Source of the DNA: Candidatus Hydrogenedentota bacterium
GTDB taxonomy: Bacteria > Hydrogenedentota > Hydrogenedentia > Hydrogenedentales > SLHB01
Reading direction: 5' to 3'
DNA: 64,000 nucleotides
NCBI GenBank assembly: GCA_045863335.1
Contig: BTVY01000019.1
Location: 6,939 to 70,938 of the forward strand
Shown: piece by piece, positions 43,294-57,493 of the stretch
Position numbering within the stretch: the first letter of the stretch is position 1
Layout: each line of letters begins with the position of its first letter
Notes under the pieces: generated by a model
The model's input: the letters and a program-made list of their open reading frames with translations, nothing else
Told to the model about the DNA's origin: nothing
The model's database searches: none
Translations under genes and position numbers: made by a program

Positions 43294-43431
43294 GACGCCG
43301 AGTCGGGTGGGGTCCCAGCCACCAGGGAAACGCGGAACCTCGAGTGCGGGACGCGCCTCTTGCGCGGATCGGTGTGGCGACGGTTCTAGTGAGGCGAAAT
43401 TACTGGGATAGACTATGCGAGGAGGCTAACC

Positions 43432-43725
43432 ATGGCAGCAAAGAAACCGATGACGAAAGCGCAGATCGTAGGATCGCTGGCCGACAAGACCGGCCTGAGC
43501 AAGAAGGACGTGGGGAACGTGCTCGCCGAGCTGACCAATCTTGCCTACAAAGAGGCAAAGACCGGTTTCACGATTCCGGGTCTTGGCAAGCTGGTCGTCG
43601 TGAATCGCAAGGCGCGCATGGGCCGCAATCCGGCCACCGGCGAATCCATCAAGATTCCGGCCAAGCGCGTGTTGAAGTTCCGCATCGCGAAAGCCGCGAA
43701 GGATGCGATCGCGCCCGCGAAGTAA
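43432..43725 (+). CDS. hup: HU/IHF-family nucleoid-associated DNA-binding protein
   Basis: 97-aa ORF with GAGGAGG upstream. The sequence is …GFTIPGLGKLVVVNRKARMGRNPATGESIKIPAKRVLKFR…, with the characteristic beta-arm motif RNPxTGE. Confidence 0.95.
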   Translation: MAAKKPMTKAQIVGSLADKTGLSKKDVGNVLAELTNLAYKEAKTGFTIPGLGKLVVVNRKARMGRNPATGESIKIPAKRVLKFRIAKAAKDAIAPAK

Positions 43726-43750
43726 TTTCGCGCACGCTGCTCCAATTGGT

Positions 43751-43779
43751 GGCCCGGGTTTTTATCCGGGCCTTTTTTC
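43751..43779 (+). terminator. Rho-independent terminator after hup
   Basis: GGCCCGG-gtttttat-CCGGGCC is followed by TTTTTT (43773-43778). Confidence 0.85.
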
Positions 43780-43867
43780 TTTGCTCCGCGCGTGACCGGC
43801 ATGCGGTGCTGCGCTATACTCCGGTCTCGCGCTGCGGCGGCGTGTTCGGTGCTCAACTTCAAAAGGG

Positions 43868-45890
43868 GATGCCTGTGCCACGTGGAGTGCATATCCTGCT
43901 TGCGGCTGCGATCATCGCTGGGCTGGCAATGTTGCTCACTGCGCGATCGCTGCAAAGCGGGTTCGCCACGGACGATCATTTTGCGCGCGCGACATTCAAT
44001 GGGTTCCCAGGCATCCCTGAGTACGAGAACGACGCCTTCAACGCATTCCTTTTTTCCCGCGGCGACCCGGAGCAGAATCGGGCATTGATGAATCGGGGCG
44101 TCTTCCCCTGGTGGACCGTGCCGGCGGCGCGGCTGGCCTTCTGGCGGCCTATGGCGACGTGGTCGCATTATTTCGATTACCGCGTGTGGGGTGACAATCC
44201 CTGGCCCATGCATCTGGAGAACATGCTGCTGTACGGGCTGGTCTGCCTTTTCGCGGCATTGCTGTACTGGCGGCTCATGGAGCCTCCCTGGGTGGCATTC
44301 TTCGCCGCGCTCCTGTTCACCATCGATGAAAACAATGGCCACGCCGTGGGTTGGCTGGCCAACCGGAACATGCTGATGGCGGCCGCCTGCGTGATCCTGA
44401 TCCTGCTCATTCATGACGGCTGGCGCCGGTCGGGCATGAAATCGTGCGCGGTGCTGGGTCCGCTCGTACTGGCTTTCGGTTTCCTGTGCGCGGAAGCCGT
44501 GATCGCAGTGGGCGGTTACCTGCTCGCCTACGCCTTGTTTCTCGACAAGGGCAAGTGGCCACACCGATTGATAACGCTCCTGCCGTATGGCGTCGTCGTT
44601 ATCATATGGAATGTCTTTTACCGGAGTTCGGGGTTTGGCTCCGCCGGTTCCGGATGGTATACGGACCCCGCCAGCAATCCGGTCGGGTTTTTAGGAGCGC
44701 TTTCGCAACACCTGCCGATCCTGCTGGCCGATCTTTTTCTCATGTGGCCGTCGCCGCTTCTGAACCAATTCAACGCCGCGCAGTTCCCCTATATCGTCGC
44801 GTTGCTGGGTTTGGTCGTCGTCGGAATTCTGTTGCTGCTAGTGCCCATGCTCAAGCGCGATCCCGTTTCGCGATTCTGGCTGCTCGGGCTTGTGCTGGCG
44901 CTCGTACCGGTCTGCGCGGTGACGCCGCAACCGCGCGTCGTTCTGATCGCGGGCATCGGTTGTGCGCCGTTGATAGCGCGCTTCCTTACGGCCTGGGCGA
45001 CGCCGCGCCAATGGCTCGGGTTTGCAGGCGTCCTCGCCGTTCTTGGTCTCATCGCCGTCACAGTCGGCATCCCAACCCTGTCCTTTTACACGCAAGCGGC
45101 GCTGATCGCGACGACTCTACTTGTCATCGCCGTGCTGCTGCGGTTCGCGACGGCGCGGGCGGAGTGGATGCCCCACTCCAAGGCGTGGCGCATTCCCGCG
45201 GCGGTGCTTGCGTTCTTGTGGGTTATCTTTCACGGGATCGCGGCGCCCATCGCCATGCCGGGATCGAGCATGCTGCTGGGCGTCTCGGCGAAAAAGATGG
45301 AACGCGCCTACGCGGCCATTCCGTCCGCTCCAGAAGTGGCGGACCGCACGGTCGTGTTGCTGCGTGCGCCGACGGATTTCATGCCGTGGCATTTCGCGTT
45401 GATCCGCGCATCGCTGAATATCCCCTACCCGGGGCGCATGCGCGTGCTGTCGTCGGGCAATCGCAGCGTAAGGGTCGAACGCGTGGACGAACGCACGCTG
45501 CGCCTGAGCGCCGACCCCAACCTGATTGGGAACGCGTCCACGAGCGTGTTTCGCGCGCCGACGGTCCCGATGCACCCGGGAGACATCGTGGAACTCGATG
45601 GGATGACCGTGACGGTGCTTGCTGTGGACGGCAAGGGGATGCCCGCCGCCGCGGAATACCGCTTCGACCTGCCCTTGGATCACACAAGTGTGGACGTGAT
45701 CACCGTCGCGGACGTCCCGTACAAGCTGGTGAATATCAACCGGTACATTCAAACGGAGACGTACGTGCCGATTTCTTTGCCGGCGGAGGGAAGCTCTGCC
45801 CAACTGGAAGAATTGGTAGAACAGAGCGCCGTGTATCAGGAACTCAATACGCGCGACGCCGCGGACGATACACGCGCATCAGAATCCTGA
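43868..45890 (+). CDS. Large polytopic membrane protein (GT-C-like?) with soluble C-terminal domain
   Basis: ATG 43868 follows AAAGGGGA (MPVPRGVHILLAAAIIAGLAML…). The 848-aa track ORF starting at 43344 would run through hup and its terminator and is rejected upstream of 43868. Confidence 0.75.
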
Positions 45891-45896
45891 GGGATC

Positions 45897-47606
45897 ATGT
45901 CCGGTCTTGACCCGAGACAGCGCTCCGGCCTTTTGGCCTTGGCGTTGGCGTGCTGTGCGGTCGCGTTGTACGCGCGCACGATGGCTTTCCCCTTCGTCTA
46001 TTTCGACGACGACATGTACGTATTCCAGAATTCCATCGTGTCTTCCGGCCTTACGGGCGCAGGGGTGGTTTGGGCGTTTACAACCGGCCACCTCGCGAAC
46101 TGGCATCCGCTCACCTGGGTATCCCACATGATCGACGCGCAGTGCTTCGGCATGTGGGCGGGCGGGCATCATGCGGTAAACGTACTGATTCACGGCGCCA
46201 ACACGGCCATGCTCTTCCTGGCGCTGCGCGCGTTGACGGGCGCGACGCTTCGAAGCGCGTTCGTGGCGCTACTGTTTGCCGTGCACCCGGTCAACGTGGA
46301 ATCGGTCGCGTGGATTTCCGAGCGGAAGAACGTGCTCAGCACGTTCTTCCTTCTGGCGACACTGATGGCCTACGTCCGCCACGTCGAACTGCCTGGCTTT
46401 CGCCGGTACTTGGTGGTCTCCGTCATTTTCCTGCTCGGCCTGATGACGAAACCCATGCTGGTAACCCTGCCCTTCGTCCTGTTGCTTCTCGATTACTGGC
46501 CGTTGAACCGGTATGCGGGCCGCACGCCCATGCAGGCATTGCGACGCTTCGGACGCCTGGCATACGAGAAGATCCCATTGTTTGCGGTCTCGGTTGTCTC
46601 ATCGATGGTCACCTACGCCGCGCAGCATCGTGGCGAAGCGATGTCGGCGATGGCCGAGTTGCCTTTCGACGCGCGGCTTGCGAATGCCGTTCTCGCGTAT
46701 GGGGCGTATTTGAAGCATCTCCTGTGGCCCGCAGGACTCGCGGCCATCTATCCCCATTCGGGAGAATCCTATTCGCTCGTCACGGTTTTCGTGGCGCTTG
46801 GAATACTTGCAGCCATATCCTTCGCGGCGGTTGCCCTGATTCGTCGCGCGCCGTATCTCTTTGTGGGATGGTTCTGGTTTGCCGGTACCCTCGTGCCCGT
46901 GATCGGCCTCGTCCAGATCGGCTATCAATCCATGGCTGACCGCTATCTCTATGTTCCCGCTATCGGCGTGTTCACCGCCGTCGTGTGGGGGATTGCGGAC
47001 TTTTGTGAAGACCGTCCGTTGCGGCGACGCATCGCTTTGTGGACGGGCGCGGCCTGCGTCGCACTGCTCGCCGCTGTCTGCTGGCGGCAGATGACCTATT
47101 GGCGGGGGACGGTACCCTTGTTCGAGCGCGCGATCGCGGTCACCGAAACGAACGCGGAAGCGCACAATCACCTCGCGTACTACTACCTGACCCAGAACGA
47201 ACCGGAAAAGGCGATCCCGCACTGCGAAGCGGCGCAGGAGGACCGTCCTGGCCTGGCGGCCACGTATACGAACTGGGGCGCGGCACTGCGGATGATGGGA
47301 GACGCGCAGGGCGCCATTGCGAAATACGAGGAGGCCTTGCGGCTCAAGGCCGGCGACTCGGTGATCCATACGAACCTCGGCATCGCGCTGCTCCAGTCGG
47401 GCCGAAACGACGATTCGCGCAAGCACCTGGAAGAAGCGGTCCGAATTGATCCCCGGTCGGCCTCCGCGCATGCCTACCTGGGCGCCGCGCTTGCCGCGAT
47501 GGGGATGCCGGAGGATGCCAAAGCCCACTTCGAAAGAGCCCTGGAAATCGATCCCGAATACGAACTGGCCCGTTCCGCGCTGGACGCTTTGTCGACGATC
47601 CCCTAG
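45897..47606 (+). CDS. GT-C-type membrane protein with C-terminal TPR repeats (TMTC/PMT_2-like)
   Basis: 569-aa ORF. The N-terminal motif …FVYFDDDMYVFQNSIV… and about 9 TM helices are followed by TPR repeats (…AHNHLAYYYLTQNEPEKAIPHCEAA…). It starts 6 nt after the previous stop. Confidence 0.85.
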   Translation: MSGLDPRQRSGLLALALACCAVALYARTMAFPFVYFDDDMYVFQNSIVSSGLTGAGVVWAFTTGHLANWHPLTWVSHMIDAQCFGMWAGGHHAVNVLIHGANTAMLFLALRALTGATLRSAFVALLFAVHPVNVESVAWISERKNVLSTFFLLATLMAYVRHVELPGFRRYLVVSVIFLLGLMTKPMLVTLPFVLLLLDYWPLNRYAGRTPMQALRRFGRLAYEKIPLFAVSVVSSMVTYAAQHRGEAMSAMAELPFDARLANAVLAYGAYLKHLLWPAGLAAIYPHSGESYSLVTVFVALGILAAISFAAVALIRRAPYLFVGWFWFAGTLVPVIGLVQIGYQSMADRYLYVPAIGVFTAVVWGIADFCEDRPLRRRIALWTGAACVALLAAVCWRQMTYWRGTVPLFERAIAVTETNAEAHNHLAYYYLTQNEPEKAIPHCEAAQEDRPGLAATYTNWGAALRMMGDAQGAIAKYEEALRLKAGDSVIHTNLGIALLQSGRNDDSRKHLEEAVRIDPRSASAHAYLGAALAAMGMPEDAKAHFERALEIDPEYELARSALDALSTIP

Positions 47607-47662
47607 AATAGTTCCCGAGCAATGTGCCGTTGCCGTCCGATTCTCGAGAGGGAGGTCACGCC

Positions 47663-48625
47663 ATGGGAACAGGGGGATTCCAGGATGCAGGCGGGCGCAT
47701 GCGCGTCATGGACGCCGTGCAGGCATCCATCGACCGCACGCGCACGATGTTGTTCGAGCCATTCGATTTCGAGCGTTGGCTCACGTTCGGGGTAATCGCG
47801 TTTCTCGATATCTTTCTGGCCGGCGGTGGCCTGTCCCGATCCGGCGCGCGGTTCTCGGGTCAAGGGCAAGGGGGCTCGCAGTCTTCGCCAAATCTGGACG
47901 GCGTGGCGGAGTGGTTGGGTGAGAATGCCGTTTTGATTGTGATGATCGCCGTCCCTCTTATCCTGATCGCGTTGGCGATTCATGTGGGACTCATGTACGT
48001 GGGGTGTCGCGGCCAGGTCATGTTTGTACGCTCCGTATCCATGAACGGCGGCAAGCTGGGCGAGCACTGGAGCGCCGTAAAGCAGCCCGCGTGGTCACTG
48101 TTCCTCTTCCGGCTCGGGCTGCTCGCCGTTTGGCTGGTATTCGTGCTTGTCCTGATTCTGTTCTTTCTCGTTGCGGTCGGGTTGCAGGGTGGATTCCGAT
48201 CCGGTGAGGCGCTGCTGTATACCCTGATTCCCTTTGGCCTCGTAGTAGTGGCGGGATGGGTAGTTCTGGCGTTGATTCAGGTCATGTTGCGGGCCTTCGT
48301 CGTGCCCCTCATGTGGGCGCGCGATCTGTCGTGCACGGAAGCCTGGCAGGTGTTCGTTCCCCTTGCGAAGGCAAACGCGGGCTCCCTCGCCGGATTCGTC
48401 CTGATCAAGATCGCATATAGCATCGGATTCAGTATCGCGACGCTGTTCGTGGGTTGTCTGACCTGTTGCATCGGCTTGCTGCCCGTCGTTCATCACACGT
48501 TGTTCGCGCCGTTCTATGTGTTTGACCGGGCTTTTCCGATGGAAATGCTGGCCATGTCGGGGGAGGACGAGGGCACGTTGTTTGCCCCCGTGCCATATGA
48601 GGCGCCGCCGCCCCTGGTCCGCTGA
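47663..48625 (+). CDS. Hypothetical polytopic membrane protein
   Basis: ATG 47663 lies 7 nt after GGAGG. It has about 6 TM helices and no recognised family. Confidence 0.65.
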   Translation: MGTGGFQDAGGRMRVMDAVQASIDRTRTMLFEPFDFERWLTFGVIAFLDIFLAGGGLSRSGARFSGQGQGGSQSSPNLDGVAEWLGENAVLIVMIAVPLILIALAIHVGLMYVGCRGQVMFVRSVSMNGGKLGEHWSAVKQPAWSLFLFRLGLLAVWLVFVLVLILFFLVAVGLQGGFRSGEALLYTLIPFGLVVVAGWVVLALIQVMLRAFVVPLMWARDLSCTEAWQVFVPLAKANAGSLAGFVLIKIAYSIGFSIATLFVGCLTCCIGLLPVVHHTLFAPFYVFDRAFPMEMLAMSGEDEGTLFAPVPYEAPPPLVR

Positions 48626-48643: not shown

Positions 48644-50065
48644 TCAGGCGAGGATTTCGTGGATCACGTGGCCGTGCACGTCGGTCAGGCGGCGGTCGAT
48701 CCCGTTATGGCGGACCGTGAGCTTCTCGTGATCGATTCCGAGCAGATACAACACGGTGGCGTGGAGATCGTAGCAGTAAGTCGGTTTGTCGACGGCCTTG
48801 TAGGACCACTCGTCGCTCTCGCCGTACGAGACGCCGCCTTTGAATCCGCCGCCCGCCACCCACGAGGTGAAGGTGAAGGGGTTGTGATCGCGGCCTGCGC
48901 TGCCCTGGCTGCAGGGCATGCGCCCGAACTCCGTGGTCCAGATGACGATCGTGTCGTCCAGCATGCCCCGGCCCTTGAGGTCTTTCAGGAGCGCCGCGGC
49001 CGGTTTGTCCATACTGCCCGCCATGTCGGCGTGATCCTTCTTGAGATCTTCGTGCGAATCCCAATTCCGGCGGGGGAACCCGTTGTCCGCGCCGCTCCAG
49101 ACCTGAACGAATCGGACGCCCCGCTCCAGCAAACGGCGGGCGACCAGACAGTTCCGGCCGAAGTCTTCCGTGACAGGGTCGTCGAGTCCGTACAACTTCC
49201 GCGTCAACTCCGATTCACCGGAAAGATTCAACACTTCCGGCGCGCTCAATTGCAGCTTGGCCGCCATCTCGTAGCTGGCGATGCGCGCGTTGAGCCGCGA
49301 ATCACCCATCCGGCTCGCTTCGTGTTCGCGGTTGAGCGCGTTCAGCACCTCCAGCGCTTCCGCGTCTCCCTCCGGTGTAACGTAGGTGCCGTCCGGCGGG
49401 TGGAGGTCCGCGATAGGATTCGATGCGGCAGGGCGAATGAGCGTTCCTTGATGGTCCGATGGGAGAAATCCCGCGGACCAGTTCTTCGGGCCGCCCGGTG
49501 CGAACCCGCGGGAGTCCGGCAACACAACAAAGGTGGGCAGTTCGTCCGTCTCGCTGCCCAGGCCGTAGCTGACCCAGGAACCGATGCTGGGGAAACCCGG
49601 CAGCACAAAGCCCGTTGTCTGCATGAAAGTCGCGGGACCATGGACATTCGACTTGGCGATCATCGCGTGGAGGAAGGCCATGTCGTCGACACACTCGGCC
49701 AGGTGAGGCACCAGTCCGCTCACCCACTTGCCGCATTCGCCGTGTTGTTTCCACTCCCAGGGACAAGGCATGACGAAGCCGGGGTCGCTCTGAAACAGTT
49801 CGACTTTCTCGCCGGGATCGAAGGGCTCGTTGGCACGCTTGATGAGTTCCGGCTTGTAATCGAAGGTGTCGACCTGGCTGGCGGCGCCGGACATGAAGAG
49901 CTGAATCACGCGCTTCGCCTTGGGAGGGTGATGGAGTCCGTTCAGTGCGCCCGTGTGTCGTTGGGTTGCTGAGGAAGCGTAGGCGTGTTCGCGGCCCAAC
50001 AAATGGGCTAACGCGATTCCACCCAATCCACCGCCAAAATGCCAGAGAAACGATCGTCTATCCAT
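48644..50065 (-). CDS. DUF1501 (sulfatase-fold) protein with twin-arginine signal
   Basis: The start was chosen at ATG 50065-50063 (MDRRSFLWHFGGGLGGIALAHLLG). The family-typical motif is …PKAKRVIQLFMSGAASQVDTFDYKPEL…. Confidence 0.85.
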   Translation of the reverse strand: MDRRSFLWHFGGGLGGIALAHLLGREHAYASSATQRHTGALNGLHHPPKAKRVIQLFMSGAASQVDTFDYKPELIKRANEPFDPGEKVELFQSDPGFVMPCPWEWKQHGECGKWVSGLVPHLAECVDDMAFLHAMIAKSNVHGPATFMQTTGFVLPGFPSIGSWVSYGLGSETDELPTFVVLPDSRGFAPGGPKNWSAGFLPSDHQGTLIRPAASNPIADLHPPDGTYVTPEGDAEALEVLNALNREHEASRMGDSRLNARIASYEMAAKLQLSAPEVLNLSGESELTRKLYGLDDPVTEDFGRNCLVARRLLERGVRFVQVWSGADNGFPRRNWDSHEDLKKDHADMAGSMDKPAAALLKDLKGRGMLDDTIVIWTTEFGRMPCSQGSAGRDHNPFTFTSWVAGGGFKGGVSYGESDEWSYKAVDKPTYCYDLHATVLYLLGIDHEKLTVRHNGIDRRLTDVHGHVIHEILA

Positions 50066-50324
50066 GTCGAACCTTGCGCATTGGTTTCGCGATATGCGTT
50101 TGAGACGGCGTGTGACGCCTAACACCAGGAAAACCTGAGTCGAGTATATCACGGCTCCAGCGGGGAAGCCGTGAGCCACACGCGCGCCCGCCCAAACAGG
50201 CAATCCATTTGCGTTTTAATCGTGAATTATGGCACGATTTCCGCCGCCGCGGGTCCTGCCTGCGGTGCCGATGGCACCATTGCCGCGTCATCGTTGGGGG
50301 ATATTAACAAGGGGGAGTCCGTTC

Positions 50325-51473
50325 ATGGACGTATTTCCTGCCGCGGATCCGATTCCGTTGCCGGCGCCGGTGTGGTTGTTCAAGGCGCTGCATTCGGTCA
50401 CGCTGGTGCTGCATTTCTTTTCGGTGCACTTTCTCGTCGGAGGACTCCTCCTCGCGATTATTTGGTCCTTTGTGGGCCGTTCCCGAAAAGATGCAGTGCT
50501 GCTGAACGCTTCCGGCATGGTGACGCATCGCCTGCCGATCGTGATGACCTACGTGATCAATCTAGGCGTGCCGCCGTTGCTGTTTACCCAGGTGCTGTAC
50601 GGGCGCGGTCTTTATACGAGCAGCGTCCTCATTGGCGCGTGGTGGATCAGCGTCGTCGCCTTGCTCATCGTTTCGTACACCTTCCTCTACATCATGAGCA
50701 GCCGCGCCGAATCGGGGCGCGCGGCCGGTTGGGCAGGGCTCATCGCGCTGATCGTGGTACTGAAAATCGGGTTCATCTACACGAACAATATGACCCTCAT
50801 GCTCCGGCCGGACGTGTGGGGGGCCATGTACGAGAACAGCGCGGCCGGCGTGCAGTTTCATTCCGGCGATCCCACGATGATGCCGCGGTGGCTCTACATG
50901 ATTCTTGGATCCATCGGCGTTGCCGGAATCGCGCTGCTGTTCATCGGCATGAAGAGCACCGTTGACGACGGGGTTGCGGGACTCCTCACGCGGTGGGGCG
51001 GACGCTTGCTCGCCGGATTCACCGTCGTTCAAATCGCGCTCGGGTTCTGGGTGTTTCGCACGCAGCCCGAGGCCGTGCGCGCCGGTCTCACCAGCGGCGC
51101 GGCTTATCCCGCGATGATGGGCCTTTGGGCGGTATCGGCCTTGGCGGCGATCGGACTAGGCGTGATGGTCGCGCGTAGAACCCGCGTGCACGGGGGGCTT
51201 GTTTCAATCGCCGCATTGGCGGCGTTTCTGAATGTATTCGCCATGGTGCTTCTGCGCGACGGCATTCGCGATCTTACGCTCGCTGCGGCTGGTTTCGACG
51301 TGTGGGCGCGCGAGGTCGCAACCAACTGGTCGATCGTCATTATCTTTCTCCTCTGTTTCATGCTTGCGCTGGTCATGATGGTCTGGTTGATCTCCGTCGT
51401 GGCGCGGGCCAAGGCACAGCCGGAATCCTACGCCGCGTTCGCGGATGGATTGGTTGAAAAGGAGGTCGTGTAA
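50325..51473 (+). CDS. Polytopic membrane protein, first gene of the Rieske/cytochrome b operon
   Basis: ATG 50325 follows GGGGGAG. It has about 10 TM helices, and the N-terminal helix reads …LHFFSVHFLVGGLLLAI…. No family was recognised confidently. Confidence 0.7.
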   Translation: MDVFPAADPIPLPAPVWLFKALHSVTLVLHFFSVHFLVGGLLLAIIWSFVGRSRKDAVLLNASGMVTHRLPIVMTYVINLGVPPLLFTQVLYGRGLYTSSVLIGAWWISVVALLIVSYTFLYIMSSRAESGRAAGWAGLIALIVVLKIGFIYTNNMTLMLRPDVWGAMYENSAAGVQFHSGDPTMMPRWLYMILGSIGVAGIALLFIGMKSTVDDGVAGLLTRWGGRLLAGFTVVQIALGFWVFRTQPEAVRAGLTSGAAYPAMMGLWAVSALAAIGLGVMVARRTRVHGGLVSIAALAAFLNVFAMVLLRDGIRDLTLAAAGFDVWAREVATNWSIVIIFLLCFMLALVMMVWLISVVARAKAQPESYAAFADGLVEKEVV

Positions 51474-51476
51474 CTC

Positions 51477-51968
51477 ATGGCCGATGCCACGCTGGATTCG
51501 ATGGAAACGCCCGAAGAAAACGGCAGCGCCTCGCCGACGCGCCGCGCGTTTGTGAAGGCGGGATTCGGTTTGGTCGGCGCGTGCTACGCGGGCGCGATCG
51601 GCTATCCCATTTACCGGTACCTGGCCACCCCCGCCGTGCGCGCCGCGGAGATGGGGGCCATCACCGAGGTGGCTTTTCCGGAGACGGACATGCCGCCCGC
51701 GGGTTCCGCGCTGCGCTTCATGTTCGGACCACGCCCGGCCATGCTCATTCATCACACCGACGGCAGCGTGGTTTGTTTCGACGCCGTGTGCACGCATCTG
51801 GGATGCACGGTCGAGTTCCAACCCGACCAGAACCGCATTCATTGCGCATGCCATGGGGGCAATTACGACATGCACACCGGCAAGAACGTGGCGGGCCCGC
51901 CGCCGAAGCCGTTGCGTCAATTCAATGTGGAGGTTGTCGATGGGCAGATCGTCGTCTCTCGCGCCTAG
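51477..51968 (+). CDS. Rieske [2Fe-2S] protein
   Basis: 163-aa ORF with a Tat-like RRAFVKAG. The cluster boxes are CTHLGCTV and CACHGGNY. Confidence 0.9.
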   Translation: MADATLDSMETPEENGSASPTRRAFVKAGFGLVGACYAGAIGYPIYRYLATPAVRAAEMGAITEVAFPETDMPPAGSALRFMFGPRPAMLIHHTDGSVVCFDAVCTHLGCTVEFQPDQNRIHCACHGGNYDMHTGKNVAGPPPKPLRQFNVEVVDGQIVVSRA

Positions 51969-53043
51969 CGCTATACAATCCGGCCTGTATCGTTGGTTGG
52001 ACGCGCGCTTGGGGCTTGCTGAACTTCGGGCCATGGCCCGGAAGAAGGAAGTGCCGCAGCACCGCCATTCGTTCTGGTACTACTGGGGCGGGATCACGCT
52101 TTTCCTATTTCTCATTCAACTGATCAGCGGAATCCTCTTGCTCGTCTACTACCGGCCCGGCGCGGACGCTTATGATTCGGTCCGTCAGATTACGTACGAC
52201 ATCGAGTTCGGCTGGCTGATCCGGTCGGCCCATTCGTGGTCGGCCAATCTCATGGTGCTTGCCGCCTTCGTTCACATGTTCTCCGTGTTTTTCATGAAGG
52301 CGTACCGCAACCCGCGCGAACTCGGGTGGTGGAGCGGTTTGGCCCTGCTCGGACTGACGATGGTCTTCGGGTTCAGCGGCTACCTCTTGCCCATGGACGA
52401 ACTGGCCTTCTTCGCGACCAAGGTGGGGCTTGAAATTCCCGCCAGTATCCCGGGAGTCGGCGCGATCATCGTTACGCTGGTCCAGGGCGGCGAATCGGTA
52501 ACGGCGGTGACCATTCAACGGTTCTTCGCGTTGCACGTCGTCGTGCTGCCCATGGTGTTCATGGCCATTCTCGCGTTTCATCTGTGGCTCGTGCAGAAGC
52601 ACGGCAACGCGGTGCCGCCAAGCGAAGAACTCGTGCCCGAGACCGAACGCCGGTCCATCCCGTTCTTTCCGAACTTTCTGGCGAAGGATCTTGCCATGTG
52701 GCTGATCGCGCTCAACGTGCTCGCGATTCTCGCCTCGATGTATCCCTGGCAATTGGGCGCGCCCGCCGATCCCGCGGCGCCCGCGCCCGAAGGCATTCAT
52801 CCCGAATGGTATTTCATGAGCCAGTTCCAAGCGCTGAAGGTTCTCGGGAATTGGTTGCCGGGCGTAACCGGCGAATTCGCGGGCATTGCGCTGTTCGGGA
52901 TCGGCGGATTGCTTTGGGGCCTGATTCCGCTGTTTGACACCAGCAGCCGGGCCGGCGCGCGCGCGCGGGCGGCCACGTGGTTCGGCGTTATCGCGTTGTT
53001 CGGTTTGATCGCCCTTACAATCTGGGGCTACGCCGAGGTATAG
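51940..53043 (+). CDS. Cytochrome b (fused b6-like N-terminal part plus subunit-IV-like part)
   Basis: ATG 51940 lies 6 nt after GGAGG and overlaps the Rieske gene by 29 nt. Motifs include …WYYWGGITLF…SAHSWSANLMV…, the His-containing helices and the PEWYF motif. Confidence 0.85.
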   Translation: MGRSSSLAPSAIQSGLYRWLDARLGLAELRAMARKKEVPQHRHSFWYYWGGITLFLFLIQLISGILLLVYYRPGADAYDSVRQITYDIEFGWLIRSAHSWSANLMVLAAFVHMFSVFFMKAYRNPRELGWWSGLALLGLTMVFGFSGYLLPMDELAFFATKVGLEIPASIPGVGAIIVTLVQGGESVTAVTIQRFFALHVVVLPMVFMAILAFHLWLVQKHGNAVPPSEELVPETERRSIPFFPNFLAKDLAMWLIALNVLAILASMYPWQLGAPADPAAPAPEGIHPEWYFMSQFQALKVLGNWLPGVTGEFAGIALFGIGGLLWGLIPLFDTSSRAGARARAATWFGVIALFGLIALTIWGYAEV

Positions 53044-53053
53044 GAGAGTTGGA

Positions 53054-54541
53054 ATGAATTACCCGTTCTGGGACGTGCCGGTTATTGGCAGCGGCTGGGT
53101 GATCGGCGGCATTGCGATCGTCCACATTCTCATCAGCCATTTTGCGGTGGGCGGCGGTTTGTATTTGCCCATGGCGGAACGGAAAGCGCTGCGGGAAGGG
53201 CGCACCGAATGGATGCCCGTGTTGAAACGGCATTCGCGGTTCTTTCTGATCCTCACCGGCGTGTTCGGCGCGGCGACGGGCGTGGGAATCTGGTTTGCCA
53301 TCGGTTTGGCCAATCCGGAAGGCACGAGCACGCTCATTCACAACTTCGTCTTCGGATGGGCGATCGAATGGACCTTTTTCTTCGTGGAGTTGTCCTCGGC
53401 GGCGGTCTATTACTACACGTGGGGGCGCATTCCCGACAAGCTCCACCTCAAAGTCGGTTGGGTCTATGCGTTCTTCTCCTTCCTTACGCTCGTTATCATT
53501 AACGGAATTCTGACCTTCATGCTGACGCCGGGCCAGAGCTGGCTCGAAGTCGCGGGCACCGGAAACGAAGCGACGCGTTTCTGGCAGGCCTTCTTCAATC
53601 CGACGTACTGGCCGAGTCTCGGCATTCGCACCCTGGTCTGCATCTCGCTGGCGGGCGTGTGGGCGCTGGTCACGGCGAGCCGCATCGATGGATTCGAGAA
53701 TCCCGCGCTGAAGACGTCCTTCGTCCGTTGGTCGGCGAAGTGGCTCATCCCCGCCTTCATTCTGTTGCCGGTATTCTTCCTGTGGTTCCTTCACATGGTG
53801 CCCTTCGAGCAGCGCGGGTTAATCAAGCTCGGCATTGCGACCATTGGACAAGGCGTGTTCACGCAGGTGACGCGGGCCGCCTTGGTGACCATGATGACGT
53901 CCGCAACCATCGCGATGATCGTGTACTTCCTCGCGTTCCGCAACCCGCGCGACTTTACCTTCGGTCATGCGGTCGCCGTGTTGTTTCTCGCGCTGGCCGC
54001 GACGGCCTCGACGGAGCAGGCGCGCGAAATGCTGCGTAAACCCTACGTCGTCGTGAACCACATTTACTCCAACGGCGTTCGCGCGAAAACGGAGGTAACG
54101 AAGTTCAATGAGGAGGGCTACCTCACGCGCAGCATCTGGGCCACGGAAGAGCAGAAGGCGGAGTGGGCACGACTCGACGCGGCCACGCCTGTGCCGGGTA
54201 CCGTGGTACCCGCCGCGGAAGCCCCGCAACCCGAACGGGTGCCGCAACTGGATCGCGGCAAGCTCATGCTGCGGGGACAGTGCATGGCCTGCCATACGGT
54301 CGACGGCTACCGATCCTTGCGCAAACTGCTTGCCGAGCGGGACCGGGAATCGATCACCAATGTGCTCACCATGCTGCACGAGTACAAAGACGACTCGCCA
54401 TACCGCGCGTACATGCCGCCCCTCGTCGGCAGCGACGGCGAGATCGCGGCCTTGGCGGATTACCTCGATCACCTCGTGCAGACGGCCAAGCCCGAGCACA
54501 AGGAAGACGCGGAGATCACCGTCGCGACCGCCGATGAGTAG
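53054..54541 (+). CDS. CydA-like (cytochrome bd subunit I superfamily) membrane protein fused to a C-terminal monohaem cytochrome c domain
   Basis: 495-aa ORF. The N-terminal ~330 aa parallel CydA blocks by eye (…HILISHFAVGGGLYL…, …FGWAIEWTFFFVELSS…). CMACH is encoded at 54281-54295. Confidence 0.7.
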   Translation: MNYPFWDVPVIGSGWVIGGIAIVHILISHFAVGGGLYLPMAERKALREGRTEWMPVLKRHSRFFLILTGVFGAATGVGIWFAIGLANPEGTSTLIHNFVFGWAIEWTFFFVELSSAAVYYYTWGRIPDKLHLKVGWVYAFFSFLTLVIINGILTFMLTPGQSWLEVAGTGNEATRFWQAFFNPTYWPSLGIRTLVCISLAGVWALVTASRIDGFENPALKTSFVRWSAKWLIPAFILLPVFFLWFLHMVPFEQRGLIKLGIATIGQGVFTQVTRAALVTMMTSATIAMIVYFLAFRNPRDFTFGHAVAVLFLALAATASTEQAREMLRKPYVVVNHIYSNGVRAKTEVTKFNEEGYLTRSIWATEEQKAEWARLDAATPVPGTVVPAAEAPQPERVPQLDRGKLMLRGQCMACHTVDGYRSLRKLLAERDRESITNVLTMLHEYKDDSPYRAYMPPLVGSDGEIAALADYLDHLVQTAKPEHKEDAEITVATADE

Positions 54542-54570: not shown

Positions 54571-54731
54571 GAACATCCCCCTTATCCCCCTTCAAAGGGG
54601 GAGTTTCGCGCAACGCGGAGCGTTGCGATAGTTCGGCCCGACGACATGACATCACTGCGTGCGACGCGGAGTTACAAAGGCACCGACCTGGCGCAATTCC
54701 CCCTTCGAAGGGGGATTCAAGGGGGATGTTC
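54571..54731. repeat. 161-bp MITE/REP-like palindromic element
   Basis: Perfect 13-bp terminal inverted repeats are GAACATCCCCCTT (54571-54583) and AAGGGGGATGTTC (54719-54731). Each is adjacent to a self-complementary TCCCCCTTC(A/G)AAGGGGGA. An internal hairpin GCAACGC-gga-GCGTTGC is also present. Confidence 0.7.
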
Positions 54732-54857: not shown

Positions 54858-55208
54858 ATGAGCAGTACGATCACGATTTATCACAATCCACGGTGCACCA
54901 AGAGCCGCGAAACATTGGCCCTGCTACGCGAAGAGGGCGTTGAACCCGAGGTGGTCGAATATCTGAAGACGCCGCCGTCGAAGGCCCGCCTCCGGGAGTT
55001 GGCGAAGCTCCTGGGCAATGCGCATGTCTTGCTGCGGACGAAGGAGAAAGAGTACCAGGCGCTCGGTCTGTCGCCGGAAAGCACAACCGCCGCTATTGTC
55101 GACGCGATTGCCGAGCACCCGATTCTGCTGGAGCGCCCCATCGTCGTCTGTGACGGCAAGGCCGCAATCGGCCGGCCGCCGGAGTCGGTGCTGCGCATCC
55201 TTCCCTGA
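54858..55208 (+). CDS. arsC: ArsC/YfgD-family (glutaredoxin-type arsenate reductase family) protein
   Basis: 116-aa ORF. It starts MSSTITIYHNPRCTKSRETLALL, matching the ArsC-family catalytic-Cys context HNPxCxxSR. Confidence 0.8.
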   Translation: MSSTITIYHNPRCTKSRETLALLREEGVEPEVVEYLKTPPSKARLRELAKLLGNAHVLLRTKEKEYQALGLSPESTTAAIVDAIAEHPILLERPIVVCDGKAAIGRPPESVLRILP

Positions 55209-55247: not shown

Positions 55248-56822
55248 ATGCCCCCTTCGAAGAAACGTCCCAAGATCACGACGCGCCCGTGGAAGGAAGA
55301 AGACATTCCCGCGCTGGTGGAATGCCAGTATGCCGCGTATAGCGACTTTCCGCACTACCGGCTCTGCAACGAGCGGCTGTTCCACTTGCAGCACACCGCG
55401 TTCCCGGAGGGCCAGTTCCTTGCGGAGGTGGACGGCCAGATCGCGGGGTACTGCGCGTCGCTGATCGTGATGCTGGACGACTCGGCGCCCTGGCATTCCT
55501 ACAACGAGATTACCGGCAGCGGCACTTTCAATACCCACGACCCCGGCGGCGACACCTTGTACGGCGCGGAGATCGCCGTACGGCCCGAGTATCGCGGGAT
55601 GGGCGTCGCGGGCGCGTTGTACAAGGAACGCATCAAACTCATGAAGCGCTTCAATCTCCGTCGCATGGTGGCGGGCGGGCGCATCCCGGGCTACTGGGAG
55701 TACGCGGGGAAGATGACCGCGGAAGAGTACGTCGACAAGGTCATCGCCGGCGAACTTAAGGATCAGGCGCTGAACGCGCACATCAAGGCAGGGTATTCCG
55801 TCAAGGGGATCCACTACGACTATCTCAGCGACGAGGCAAGCCTGAACTACGCGACCCACCTCGAGTTGATCAATCCCGACTTCAAACTAGAGCGGCGGCG
55901 CATCGCGTCGTCACCCATTACACGACCTGTGCGGCGTGTGCGCGTGTGCGCGGCGCAATACGATCTCCGCGGCATTCGAAGTTGGGAAGATTTCGAACGG
56001 CAGGTGGATTTCTTCGTCACGACGGCGGAAGAGTATCACTGCCATTTTCTCGTGTTTCCGGAACTGTTCACGGCGCAGCTCATCAGCACCATGGACCGCG
56101 ACATGGAGCCGTTGGAGGCCGTGCGCCACCTTGCGGACTATACGGATCAATACACGGAAATGTTCGCCGCCATGTCGCAACGGTTCGGCGGGTACATCAT
56201 CGGCGGATCGCATCCGGTCATGCGGGAAGGCTCGCTCCGCAACGTCTCGCACCTGTTTTCGCCGACAGGACAGATCTACACGCAGGACAAGTTGCACATT
56301 ACGCCGGACGAACGGAAGTTCTGGGGCATTCAGCCCGGCGAAGGGTTGAACGTGTTCGAGACGGAGTTCGCGCGTATCGCGATCCAGGTCTGTTACGACA
56401 TCGAGTTCCCCGAGATGAGCCGGCTCCTCACCTTGTACGGCGCGGAAGTCGTCTTCGTTCCGTTCATGACCGACGAGAAGAAGGCCTACTCCCGCGTGCG
56501 GCTCTGCGCCCAGGCGCGGGCCGTGGAGAACTACATCTATACCGTCATCGCGGGCAACGTGGGGAACTTGCCGCAGGTGCGCAGCTTTCTCATCAACTAC
56601 GGCCAGGCGGCCATCTTTACGCCGAGCGATTTCGCGTTCCCCCCGCATGCGACCGCGGCGGAAGCGGAACCCAACACGGAGATGGTGGTCATCACCGATC
56701 TCGATCTCGAAACCCTCGCGTTGCAGCGGGACATGGGGACCGTGCGGCCGCTGCGCGACCGGCGGCCGGACCTCTACACCCTCGTGCCGAGCCGCGCGGT
56801 CAACGTGATCCGCACTCAGTAG
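55248..56822 (+). CDS. Bifunctional GNAT N-acyltransferase / carbon-nitrogen hydrolase (nitrilase superfamily) fusion
   Basis: 524-aa ORF. The N-terminal GNAT region is …AEIAVRPEYRGMGVAGALY…. The C-terminal nitrilase triad context is LVFPELF, QDKLHITP, IQVCYDIEFPE. Confidence 0.85.
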   Translation: MPPSKKRPKITTRPWKEEDIPALVECQYAAYSDFPHYRLCNERLFHLQHTAFPEGQFLAEVDGQIAGYCASLIVMLDDSAPWHSYNEITGSGTFNTHDPGGDTLYGAEIAVRPEYRGMGVAGALYKERIKLMKRFNLRRMVAGGRIPGYWEYAGKMTAEEYVDKVIAGELKDQALNAHIKAGYSVKGIHYDYLSDEASLNYATHLELINPDFKLERRRIASSPITRPVRRVRVCAAQYDLRGIRSWEDFERQVDFFVTTAEEYHCHFLVFPELFTAQLISTMDRDMEPLEAVRHLADYTDQYTEMFAAMSQRFGGYIIGGSHPVMREGSLRNVSHLFSPTGQIYTQDKLHITPDERKFWGIQPGEGLNVFETEFARIAIQVCYDIEFPEMSRLLTLYGAEVVFVPFMTDEKKAYSRVRLCAQARAVENYIYTVIAGNVGNLPQVRSFLINYGQAAIFTPSDFAFPPHATAAEAEPNTEMVVITDLDLETLALQRDMGTVRPLRDRRPDLYTLVPSRAVNVIRTQ

Positions 56823-56830
56823 GCCGCAGC

Positions 56831-57493
56831 ATGTTTCGCAAGCACCTGTACGTCTTCGAAGAACTGCGGCCCCGCGAAGCGGTGATCCGCGGTTACACCG
56901 AAGCCGACTTCGACGATCTCATCGATATCCAGCGCGAATGTTTCCCGCCGCCGTTTCCATCGGAATTGTGGTGGAACCAAGAGCAGCTCGGCAACCATGT
57001 GCGCCTGTTTCCCGACGGCGCCTTGTGCGTGGAGGTGGAGGGGAAGCTGGCGGGGTCCATTACCGGACTCGTCGTGCCGTGGGAACCCGGCGACCCCGAC
57101 CATGCGTGGAGCGAAATCACGGACGACGGCTACATCCGCAACCACGACCCCGACGGCAACACCTTGTACATCGTCGATATCAGCGTGCGGCCCTCGCACC
57201 GCAAGCTCGGACTCGGCAAATGGCTCATGCTCTCCATGTACGAAGTGGTCGTCGAGAAAAGGCTGACCCGCCTTCTCGGAGGCGCGCGCATGCCGGGCTA
57301 CCACAGAGTCGCGGACAAGCTGACTCCCGAGGGGTACTTGGACAAGGTCCTGGCCGGGGACATCAGCGACCCCATCGTCACGTTCTTGTTGCGCTGCGGC
57401 CGTGTGCCCGTACGCGTCGTGCCCAACTATCTCGACGACGAGGAATCCGGAAACAACGCCGTGCTCATGGAATGGCGCAACCCTTGGCGGTGA
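56831..57493 (+). CDS. GNAT N-acyltransferase, paralog of the GNAT domain of the preceding fusion
   Basis: ATG 56831 (MFRKHLYVFEELRPREAV…). It shares blocks with 55248-55900, for example W.EIT..G...HDP.G.TLY...I.VRP..R..G and G.R.PGY. In the track it is buried inside the 55946-57493 frame. Confidence 0.8.
   Translation: MFRKHLYVFEELRPREAVIRGYTEADFDDLIDIQRECFPPPFPSELWWNQEQLGNHVRLFPDGALCVEVEGKLAGSITGLVVPWEPGDPDHAWSEITDDGYIRNHDPDGNTLYIVDISVRPSHRKLGLGKWLMLSMYEVVVEKRLTRLLGGARMPGYHRVADKLTPEGYLDKVLAGDISDPIVTFLLRCGRVPVRVVPNYLDDEESGNNAVLMEWRNPWR

Follow-up and report, generated by a model that had tools for sequence, protein, structure and literature searches.

What does a relative of the catalytic subunit of cytochrome bd oxidases, ending in a haem c domain of its own, do in an operon with a Rieske protein and a cytochrome b? 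This question is raised by a four-gene cassette in a stretch of 64,000 nucleotides (nt) from a Candidatus Hydrogenedentota bacterium (GenBank assembly GCA_045863335.1, contig BTVY01000019.1, positions 6,939 to 70,938 of the forward strand), referred to below as the window. The cassette encodes a polytopic membrane protein (open reading frame 1, ORF1), a Rieske protein, a cytochrome b, and a CydA-like protein with a C-terminal cytochrome c domain (ORF4). Our answer, to which we assign a probability of about 0.6, is that the four products form one membrane menaquinol:O2 oxidoreductase, in which the Rieske/cytochrome b pair is joined to a copper-free bd-type module of the OR-C1a/b families. The architecture of the cassette, that is, its gene content, homologies, folds, kept and lost ligands, and synteny, is close to certain. 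That O2 is the acceptor, as opposed to all alternatives taken together, is roughly an even bet.

A tightly linked cassette conserved across genomes

The genes of the cassette are arranged head to tail (Table 1): 3 nt separate ORF1 from the Rieske gene, the Rieske and cytochrome b genes overlap by 29 nt, and 10 nt lie between cytochrome b and ORF4; the ORF coordinates thus bear out the initial annotation, which had described four co-directional genes separated by gaps of 3-10 nt or overlapping by 29 nt. The same 29-nt overlap recurs in an acidobacterial relative. The assignment of the ORF1 start to the ATG at 50325 is supported by a GGGGGAG ribosome-binding site 8 nt upstream, and ORF1 homologues share this start position. 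A scan for promoters and terminators yielded no sigma-70-like promoter and no informative terminator.

Linkage of the four genes extends well beyond this genome. Using tblastn, we examined 83 loci, of which 71 had enough upstream DNA for the gene order to be read and 12 were cut by contig ends. The order ORF1–Rieske–cytochrome b–ORF4 was kept in 71 of 71 loci, so the synteny anticipated for related genomes is indeed found. Mean identity to the window at the tblastn loci was 50% for ORF1, 58% for the Rieske protein, 69% for cytochrome b, and 65% for ORF4, and the divergence of the four genes was correlated (Spearman rho 0.62-0.75). The flanking genes vary from genome to genome, indicating that the cassette is a self-contained unit.

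Table 1. Genes of the cassette and functionally relevant sites in ORF4 (positions within the window; aa, amino acids)
Feature	Position	Strand	Description
ORF1, OR-C1b-like subunit, 382 aa	50325-51473	+	~9-helix membrane protein
Rieske [2Fe-2S] protein, 163 aa	51477-51968	+	Twin-arginine signal/anchor, PF00355
Cytochrome b, 367 aa	51940-53043	+	b6-like and subunit-IV-like fusion; PF00033, PF00032
ORF4, OR-C1a-like subunit, 495 aa	53054-54541	+	CydA-like 8-helix core, periplasmic linker, mono-haem cytochrome c domain
H24 codon (ORF4)	53123-53125	+	Axial ligand position of active-site haem; kept in 83/83 relatives
E105-E112 (ORF4)	53366-53389	+	Proton-channel glutamate equivalents; each kept in 84/84 relatives
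EQAREMLRKPY (ORF4 residues 321-331)	54014-54046	+	Periplasmic end of transmembrane helix 8; E325 ligand (putative)
Class I cytochrome c domain (ORF4 residues 396-476)	54239-54481	+	CMACH at 54281-54295 (residues 410-414), distal Met454

ORF4 carries a CydA-like core with a partly retained set of ligands

We assigned ORF4 to the subunit I family of bd oxidases on the basis of a significant match to the Pfam model Cyt_bd_oxida_I (PF01654; E 1.6e-16, 60.3 bits with a cut-off of 26.2), and the resemblance to CydA that had been perceived by eye is thereby placed on firmer ground. This match spans residues 19-202 of ORF4, equivalent to profile positions 8-190 of 418 only. The AlphaFold2 (AF2) model of ORF4 contains eight long helices within residues 14-336, followed by a soluble region, and the ten best matches of this model in a Foldseek search of the PDB were all CydA chains.

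Individual residues were then assigned by alignment. In a phmmer comparison with PDB sequences, ORF4 residues 6-186 aligned to subunit I of Escherichia coli bd-II (7ose_A), placing H24 on E. coli CydA H19, E105 on E99, E112 on E107, H131 on H126, and T145 on S140. The two glutamates E105 and E112 are separated by six residues, one fewer than the pair in E. coli, a spacing typical of non-qOR1 families. Of the two segments originally aligned to CydA by eye, GWAIEW...FFVELS was correctly placed (E105/E112 = E99/E107), whereas SHFAVGG led to H29, five residues away from the true counterpart, H24. H29 was rejected as a haem ligand, being conserved in only 69 of 84 relatives, and so was H336 (66 of 84).

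A profile built from 26 diverse sequences of the OR-C family was aligned to CydA of Geobacillus thermodenitrificans (5doq_A; E 3.8e-16 over CydA residues 6-391). Here the ORF4 motif EQAREMLRKPY falls on AEVGRQPW of CydA and E325 on G. thermodenitrificans E378, which corresponds to E. coli E445, the second active-site haem ligand; by this alignment E325 is its equivalent. At the position of H186, the haem b558 histidine, the profile alignment places R192 of ORF4, and the CydA segment comprising the Q-loop and M393 has no counterpart in the OR-C profile.

These positions are under strong constraint. Across 84 relatives, H24 (83/83), H96, E105, E112, H131, N150, R192, E321, R324, and E325 are invariant, as are R328 and P330 in the family alignments, while no conserved histidine was found between residues 132 and 335. 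Transmembrane (TM) helices 1-4 are the most conserved part of ORF4, with 78% identity and with 63 of their 144 columns reaching 95% identity or more, compared with 62% identity in the haem c domain; judged from these alignments, such conservation is not expected of a mere membrane anchor. ORF4 thus keeps the ligands for a bd-type di-haem O2 site (H24 and E325), together with the channel glutamates E105 and E112, has lost the haem b558 quinol site with its histidine, and has gained a cytochrome c domain.

These features bear directly on the possibility that ORF4 itself oxidizes quinol in the manner of a canonical CydA and that its linkage to the Rieske/cytochrome b genes is incidental. The database name of the protein, "cytochrome ubiquinol oxidase subunit I," would agree with such a role. 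Nevertheless, an invariant arginine occupies the place of the haem b558 histidine, the Q-loop is absent, and the linkage holds at every locus where gene order could be read. We therefore rejected this assignment, which is contradicted by the sequence and has hardly any probability left.

A single haem c is predicted on the periplasmic side

The presence of a CMACH cytochrome c domain at the end of ORF4, noted in the initial annotation, was confirmed by translation, and C410, C413, H414, and M454 proved invariant in 84 of 84 relatives. The cytochrome c models of Pfam match the ORF4 C-terminus weakly (E 0.005-0.01); the family profile also matches CcoP, actinobacterial QcrC (E about 1e-6), and cytochrome c6. 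In a comparison with the PDB, ORF4 residues 330-473, comprising the linker and the haem c domain, gave weak matches (E about 0.02) to copper nitrite reductases with a tethered C-terminal cytochrome c, which are another case of a fused electron-donor domain.

The predicted topology of ORF4 has eight TM helices with the N-terminus outside. Because CydA likewise has its N-terminus outside, an even number of helices would place the haem c domain in the periplasm, on the same side as the Rieske head. This is the single c-type haem encoded in the whole cassette, where genes for cytochromes c1 and f and for a di-haem c subunit are all lacking. Nor is one regularly supplied by the surroundings: among 56 loci surveyed over 2.5 kb on each side, a CxxCH-containing ORF was present upstream in only 4 and downstream in only 4.

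ORF1 is a paralogous partner subunit

ORF1 was initially proposed to be a divergent partner of the bd-like subunit, with no recognizable CydB homologue in the cassette. Searches of ORF1 against Pfam and NCBIfam returned nothing meaningful, phmmer found no match among PDB sequences, and none of 21 ORF1 family members matched the bd models of Pfam, including Cyt_bd_oxida_II. The AF2 model of ORF1 (predicted local distance difference test score, pLDDT, 84; predicted template modelling score, pTM, 0.83) nevertheless had a CydA or a CydB chain of cytochrome bd as each of its top 13 Foldseek matches in the PDB, with both kinds represented.

Profile comparison with hhalign revealed a relationship to ORF4 itself. 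Narrow profiles built from close relatives of ORF1 and ORF4 gave a probability of only 24%, whereas profiles widened with pair-type and distant members aligned ORF1 to OR-C1a in register over 297 columns (98.7%, E 3e-16). This alignment pairs H30 of ORF1 with H24, and R311-D312-x-x-R315 with R324-E325-x-x-R328. In addition, ORF1 shows 34% identity along its entire length (E 3e-49) to the product of a gene that, in another bacterium, directly follows a di-haem OR-C1a. From this identity and the paralogy to OR-C1a, we identify ORF1 as OR-C1b; the divergent partner proposed in the initial annotation is thereby borne out. All 66 of 66 relatives keep H30, D312 at the E445-equivalent position is mostly conserved, and the proton-channel glutamates have no counterparts in ORF1. 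By profile and fold, then, ORF1 is best described as a full-length paralogue of ORF4 and its predicted pseudo-symmetric partner in the role of CydB or CydA'. Unlike CydB, ORF1 might itself bind haem through H30 and D312.

With both subunits described, another role for the bd-derived part can be considered, namely that the cassette encodes a Rieske/cytochrome b complex whose equivalent of cytochrome c1 is anchored by a structural or regulatory bd-derived domain, and that its haem c feeds soluble carriers or a separate oxidase or reductase. The haem c of ORF4 is the only conserved c-type haem and is placed where c1 or f would act, the catalytic site of OR-C is without experimental proof, and the c-type subunits of Rieske/cytochrome b complexes have been replaced many times, as illustrated by QcrC, cytochrome f, and Chlorobium c-556. 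On the other hand, the four-helix bundle would not be expected to be the most conserved part of an anchor, nor H24, E325, E105, E112, and H131 to be invariant in it. A second, paralogous subunit of 382 aa is always co-encoded, and the conserved polytopic protein amounts to about 730 residues, far beyond what an anchor needs. We consider a purely structural or regulatory role unlikely, and prefer the reading in which ORF4 and ORF1 form an oxidase module.

The Rieske/cytochrome b pair is predicted to be competent for a Q cycle

The motifs of the electron-donating half, a Rieske protein with a Tat signal and the boxes CTHLGC and CACHGG and a fused cytochrome b with PEWY, were all located as initially described, and the corresponding Pfam domains match. 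For the Rieske protein, the match to PF00355 was significant (E 1.5e-14), and the NCBIfam models for b6f and bc1 Rieske proteins matched below their cut-offs. Its twin-arginine motif, RRAF, lies at residue 22. C105, H107, C110, C123, C125, H126, and Y130 are conserved in 73 of 73 relatives, and G127 in 66 of 73. High-potential Rieske proteins have a serine where this protein has G127. From what is generally known of Rieske proteins, the glycine in this second box (CACHGG-x-Y) suggests a lower-potential, menaquinol-type enzyme.

Cytochrome b matched PF00033 (7e-45), PF00032 (5e-8), and the cytochrome b6 subfamily of NCBIfam (217 bits). The four haem histidines H98, H112, H199, and H214 and the PEWY motif of the quinol-oxidizing (Qo) site are conserved in 79 of 79 relatives, with histidine spacings of 13 and 14 residues, the b6 pattern. 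At the position of the haem-ci cysteine of b6f and Firmicutes enzymes, the protein has W49, which is tryptophan in 72 of 79 relatives and otherwise leucine, phenylalanine, or methionine. As far as conserved residues can tell, the Rieske/cytochrome b pair is a Q-cycle-competent module.

Proposed electron path and energy yield

Taken as one enzyme, the cassette would work as follows. Quinol, probably menaquinol, would be oxidized at the Qo site of cytochrome b. One electron would pass through haems bL and bH in the manner of a Q cycle, and the other would pass through the Rieske cluster to the haem c tethered to the C-terminus of OR-C1a, a haem that would fill the role of cytochrome c1, cytochrome f, or QcrC. 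From haem c, electrons would reach the four-helix bundle of OR-C1a and, within it, a di-haem site with H24 and E325 as its ligands, where O2 would be reduced to water with cytoplasmic protons delivered via E105 and E112. OR-C1b would be the pseudo-symmetric partner in the role of CydB, and its H30 might hold a further haem. Established stoichiometries are about 1 charge per electron for the bc complex and 1 for bd-type chemistry; the proposed chain would therefore conserve about 2 charges per electron, compared with 1 for a canonical bd oxidase.

The acceptor in this scheme can be questioned. With the same architecture and electron path, the di-haem site could instead reduce nitric oxide (NO), H2O2, or another oxidant, making the complex a quinol-driven detoxifying or anaerobic reductase. 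Canonical bd oxidases are known to act on peroxide as a side reaction and to interact with NO, multi-haem relatives within OR-C are common among Desulfovibrionia, and at one acidobacterial locus a gene for an OsmC peroxiredoxin lies directly downstream of the cassette. This last neighbour is isolated, since the flanking genes are not conserved. Moreover, the carriers mostly belong to aerobic or micro-aerobic phyla, and the retained ligands and proton channel are the set that CydA uses for O2 reduction. We regard another oxidant as improbable, on a par with the purely structural or regulatory role considered above.

The direction of flow can also be questioned. A periplasmic donor could reduce haem c, with electrons driven uphill through the Rieske/cytochrome b pair to quinone; roles of this kind have been speculated for a different Nitrospira cluster, bd-like_3 with alt_NxrC_2. 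The phyla that carry the cassette are predominantly organoheterotrophic and would seem to have no obvious need for such a route, which would also leave the conserved active-site ligands and proton channel unexplained. Reverse flow is accordingly a marginal candidate, and forward flow from menaquinol to O2 is the reading that we retain.

Several points weigh against this reading. The assembly of the four proteins and electron transfer from the Rieske cluster to haem c are inferred, and the ligands are the only basis for predicting haem occupancy, haem type, and O2 reduction. The AF2 model of ORF4 is moderate in confidence (pLDDT 74), with low values in the linker and loops. The equivalence of E325 and E445 rests on a profile alignment, and the OR-C1a row in Supplementary Table 6 of Murali et al. 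has no such residue. That table may understate what OR-C1a retains; both the E445-type ligand and the exchange of the haem b558 histidine for an invariant arginine may go beyond it. No OR-C or OR-N enzyme has been characterized, and a 2024 paper calls OR-N experimentally unconfirmed. Multi-haem OR-C relatives occur in sulfate reducers and are common in Desulfovibrionia, so O2 need not be the sole acceptor of the family. As regards other oxidases or cytochromes of the organism, our view covers the window.

Distribution of the cassette and its place among OR-C proteins

Relatives of ORF4 are numerous, with more than 5,000 database sequences at E <=1e-5. The closest are from Hydrogenedentota, including a 98% identical fragment of a metagenome-assembled genome (MAG). 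By scanning 185,579 species-representative genomes with two peptide motifs, we found a relative in 524. Among the best 80 loci, assigned by record title, 24 belonged to Verrucomicrobiota, 19 to Acidobacteriota, 14 to Hydrogenedentota, and 9 to Planctomycetota, followed by Sumerlaeia and Armatimonadota (2 each) and Thermochlorobacteriaceae, a Chlorobi relative (1); the remaining 9 were unclassified or oddly labelled. The cassette therefore spans at least seven phyla, including many soil and freshwater bacteria. Four cassette-bearing MAGs were labelled Nitrospiraceae, Actinomycetota, or Dongiaceae (loci L009, L015, L038, and L073). One of them, L015, shares 97% identity with the window, which otherwise has its close relatives among Hydrogenedentota. 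These labels probably reflect mis-binning or mis-assignment, not the real distribution.

Within the wider family, the cassette marks a single lineage. Clustering at 50% identity reduced the close ORF4 family to one full-length representative. The next relatives, 44-47% identical and all mono-haem, have the same four-gene cassette. By contrast, one di-haem, one tri-haem, and one more distant mono-haem OR-C1a have an ORF1 homologue directly downstream and no Rieske/cytochrome b genes. When 87 representatives were placed in a rough neighbour-joining tree, all sequences with the cassette context fell within one mono-haem clade. A Chloracidobacterium MAG has cytochrome b directly upstream of its ORF4 homologue, and the carriers of the cassette are likely to include the cultured Chloracidobacterium thermophilum. 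Whether this mono-haem OR-C clade, always in an operon with Rieske/cytochrome b genes, is an unrecognized type of oxidase that combines a copper-free bd-type site, a Q cycle, and a tethered haem c is a broader claim, and we put it at slightly less than an even chance.

Genomic surroundings in the window

A G/C-rich hairpin at 54577-54600 (CCCCTTTGAAGGGGGATAAGGGGG, - strand) lies 36 nt past the stop codon of ORF4 and could mark the end of the operon. Further downstream are an ArsC-family gene (54858-55208) and, at 55248-57493, a gene for a 524-aa fusion of a GNAT acetyltransferase and a carbon-nitrogen hydrolase followed by one for a second GNAT protein; none of these genes seems related to the cassette.

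Just upstream of the cassette, a divergently oriented gene encodes a DUF1501 protein (48644-50203, - strand; E 7e-144). A DUF1501 gene also occurs about 5 kb upstream in one acidobacterial locus (L001), and this neighbour is not generally conserved. The region from 43344 to 48625 encodes large polytopic membrane proteins, one of which (45897-47606) has a C-terminal array of tetratricopeptide repeats (TPR) and another of which, at 47624-48625, is a DUF7544 membrane protein. Many long, overlapping ORFs on the opposite strand of this region are by-products of the G+C content of about 61%.

Significance

The genes of the cassette are currently annotated as "cytochrome ubiquinol oxidase subunit I" and "hypothetical protein." As a result of this misannotation, metabolic reconstructions of Acidobacteriota, Verrucomicrobiota, Planctomycetota, and Hydrogenedentota either count a canonical bd quinol oxidase where there is none or miss an entire respiratory branch. 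If the proposed reading is true, the presumed high O2 affinity and the copper independence of bd chemistry would be joined with the energy yield of a Q cycle, a combination that would matter to organisms living at low O2 in soils and sediments. With four genes, a single haem c, and strong conservation, the clade also offers a tractable entry to the function of OR-C.

What is new here is a widespread and very conserved OR-C clade in which the two subunits bracket a Rieske/cytochrome b pair; the concept itself has a precedent in OR-N. A full-text literature search found OR-C, or a CydA fused to haem c, nowhere linked to Rieske/cytochrome b, with an earlier depiction in a figure being possible, and the reviews on Rieske/cytochrome b evolution that we checked do not mention a bd partner.

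Comparison with known systems

The two bd-like subunits belong to families that have already been published. The study of Murali, Gennis, and Hemp (2021, bioRxiv 10.1101/2021.01.16.426971; ISME J 15:3534) defines OR-C by homology to CydA, a total of about eight helices, the lack of a quinol site, and an extension with haem c at the C-terminus, and regards cytochrome c as its likely donor. It has OR-C1b adjoining OR-C1a and counts Cabther_A0912 of Chloracidobacterium thermophilum among the mono-haem acidobacterial members of OR-C1a. By homology, ORF4 is a member of OR-C1a and ORF1 a member of OR-C1b. ORF4 shares with OR-C1 the CydA-like first four helices, the total of eight TM helices, the lack of a quinol site, and the C-terminal CxxCH, and H24, V77, W80, E105, E112, Y119, Y121, H131, and L153 agree in both residue and number with the OR-C1a reference row; residue 145 is threonine in ORF4 and serine in the reference. 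A paralogous "b" subunit without the channel glutamates is co-encoded in both cases. In contrast to the published adjacency of OR-C1b, two genes separate the subunits here, in the order b–petA–petB–a, and E325 is found as an E445 equivalent where Supplementary Table 6 has none.

The nearest conceptual precedents are OR-N1 and OR-N5a/b, represented by Nitrospira CIII_1 with bd-like_1/2, Rubrobacter, and Chloroflexi, in which a bd-like subunit without a quinol site is likewise found beside Rieske/cytochrome b. On the strength of adjacent petA/B/D genes, Murali et al. (2021) proposed that OR-N1 and OR-N5 are quinol-driven bd-like complexes, and a supercomplex of complex III and a bd-like module has been proposed for the Nitrospira CIII_1/bd-like region. 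However, the helices of OR-N proteins number 10 or 14, the equivalent of H186 is retained in them, and a fused haem c is lacking, whereas ORF4 has 8 helices, R192, and CxxCH; membership of ORF4 in OR-N5a/b was rejected on these three grounds. In its residue pattern, too, ORF4 agrees with OR-C and not with OR-N. The Nitrospira cluster also differs in containing separate c-type cytochromes.

Canonical CydAB (PDB 5doq, 6rko, and 7ose) shares both subunit folds, the two active-site haem ligands, and the proton-channel glutamates with the cassette. ORF4 differs in lacking haem b558 (H186 replaced by arginine) and the Q-loop, in having 8 instead of 9 helices, and in its added haem c domain, and its partner ORF1 is a CydA paralogue missed by the Pfam model for CydB. 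Quinol oxidation in the cassette would be delegated to the Rieske/cytochrome b pair. That pair resembles bc1 and b6f complexes in its Rieske 2Fe-2S protein and in a cytochrome b whose four haem histidines and PEWY are all invariant, and differs in having neither a dedicated c-type subunit nor the haem-ci cysteine.

The actinobacterial bcc–aa3 complex, with its tethered di-haem QcrC, and SoxM of Sulfolobus are obligate supercomplexes of complexes III and IV that operate without soluble cytochrome c. The cassette would share with them a Rieske/cytochrome b unit hard-wired to a terminal oxidase through a bound carrier, of the c type or another. Their oxidase is a proton-pumping haem-copper enzyme, whereas the cassette would use a copper-free bd-type module. 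Furthermore, the c domain of bcc–aa3 resides on complex III, whereas in the cassette it is fused to the oxidase subunit.

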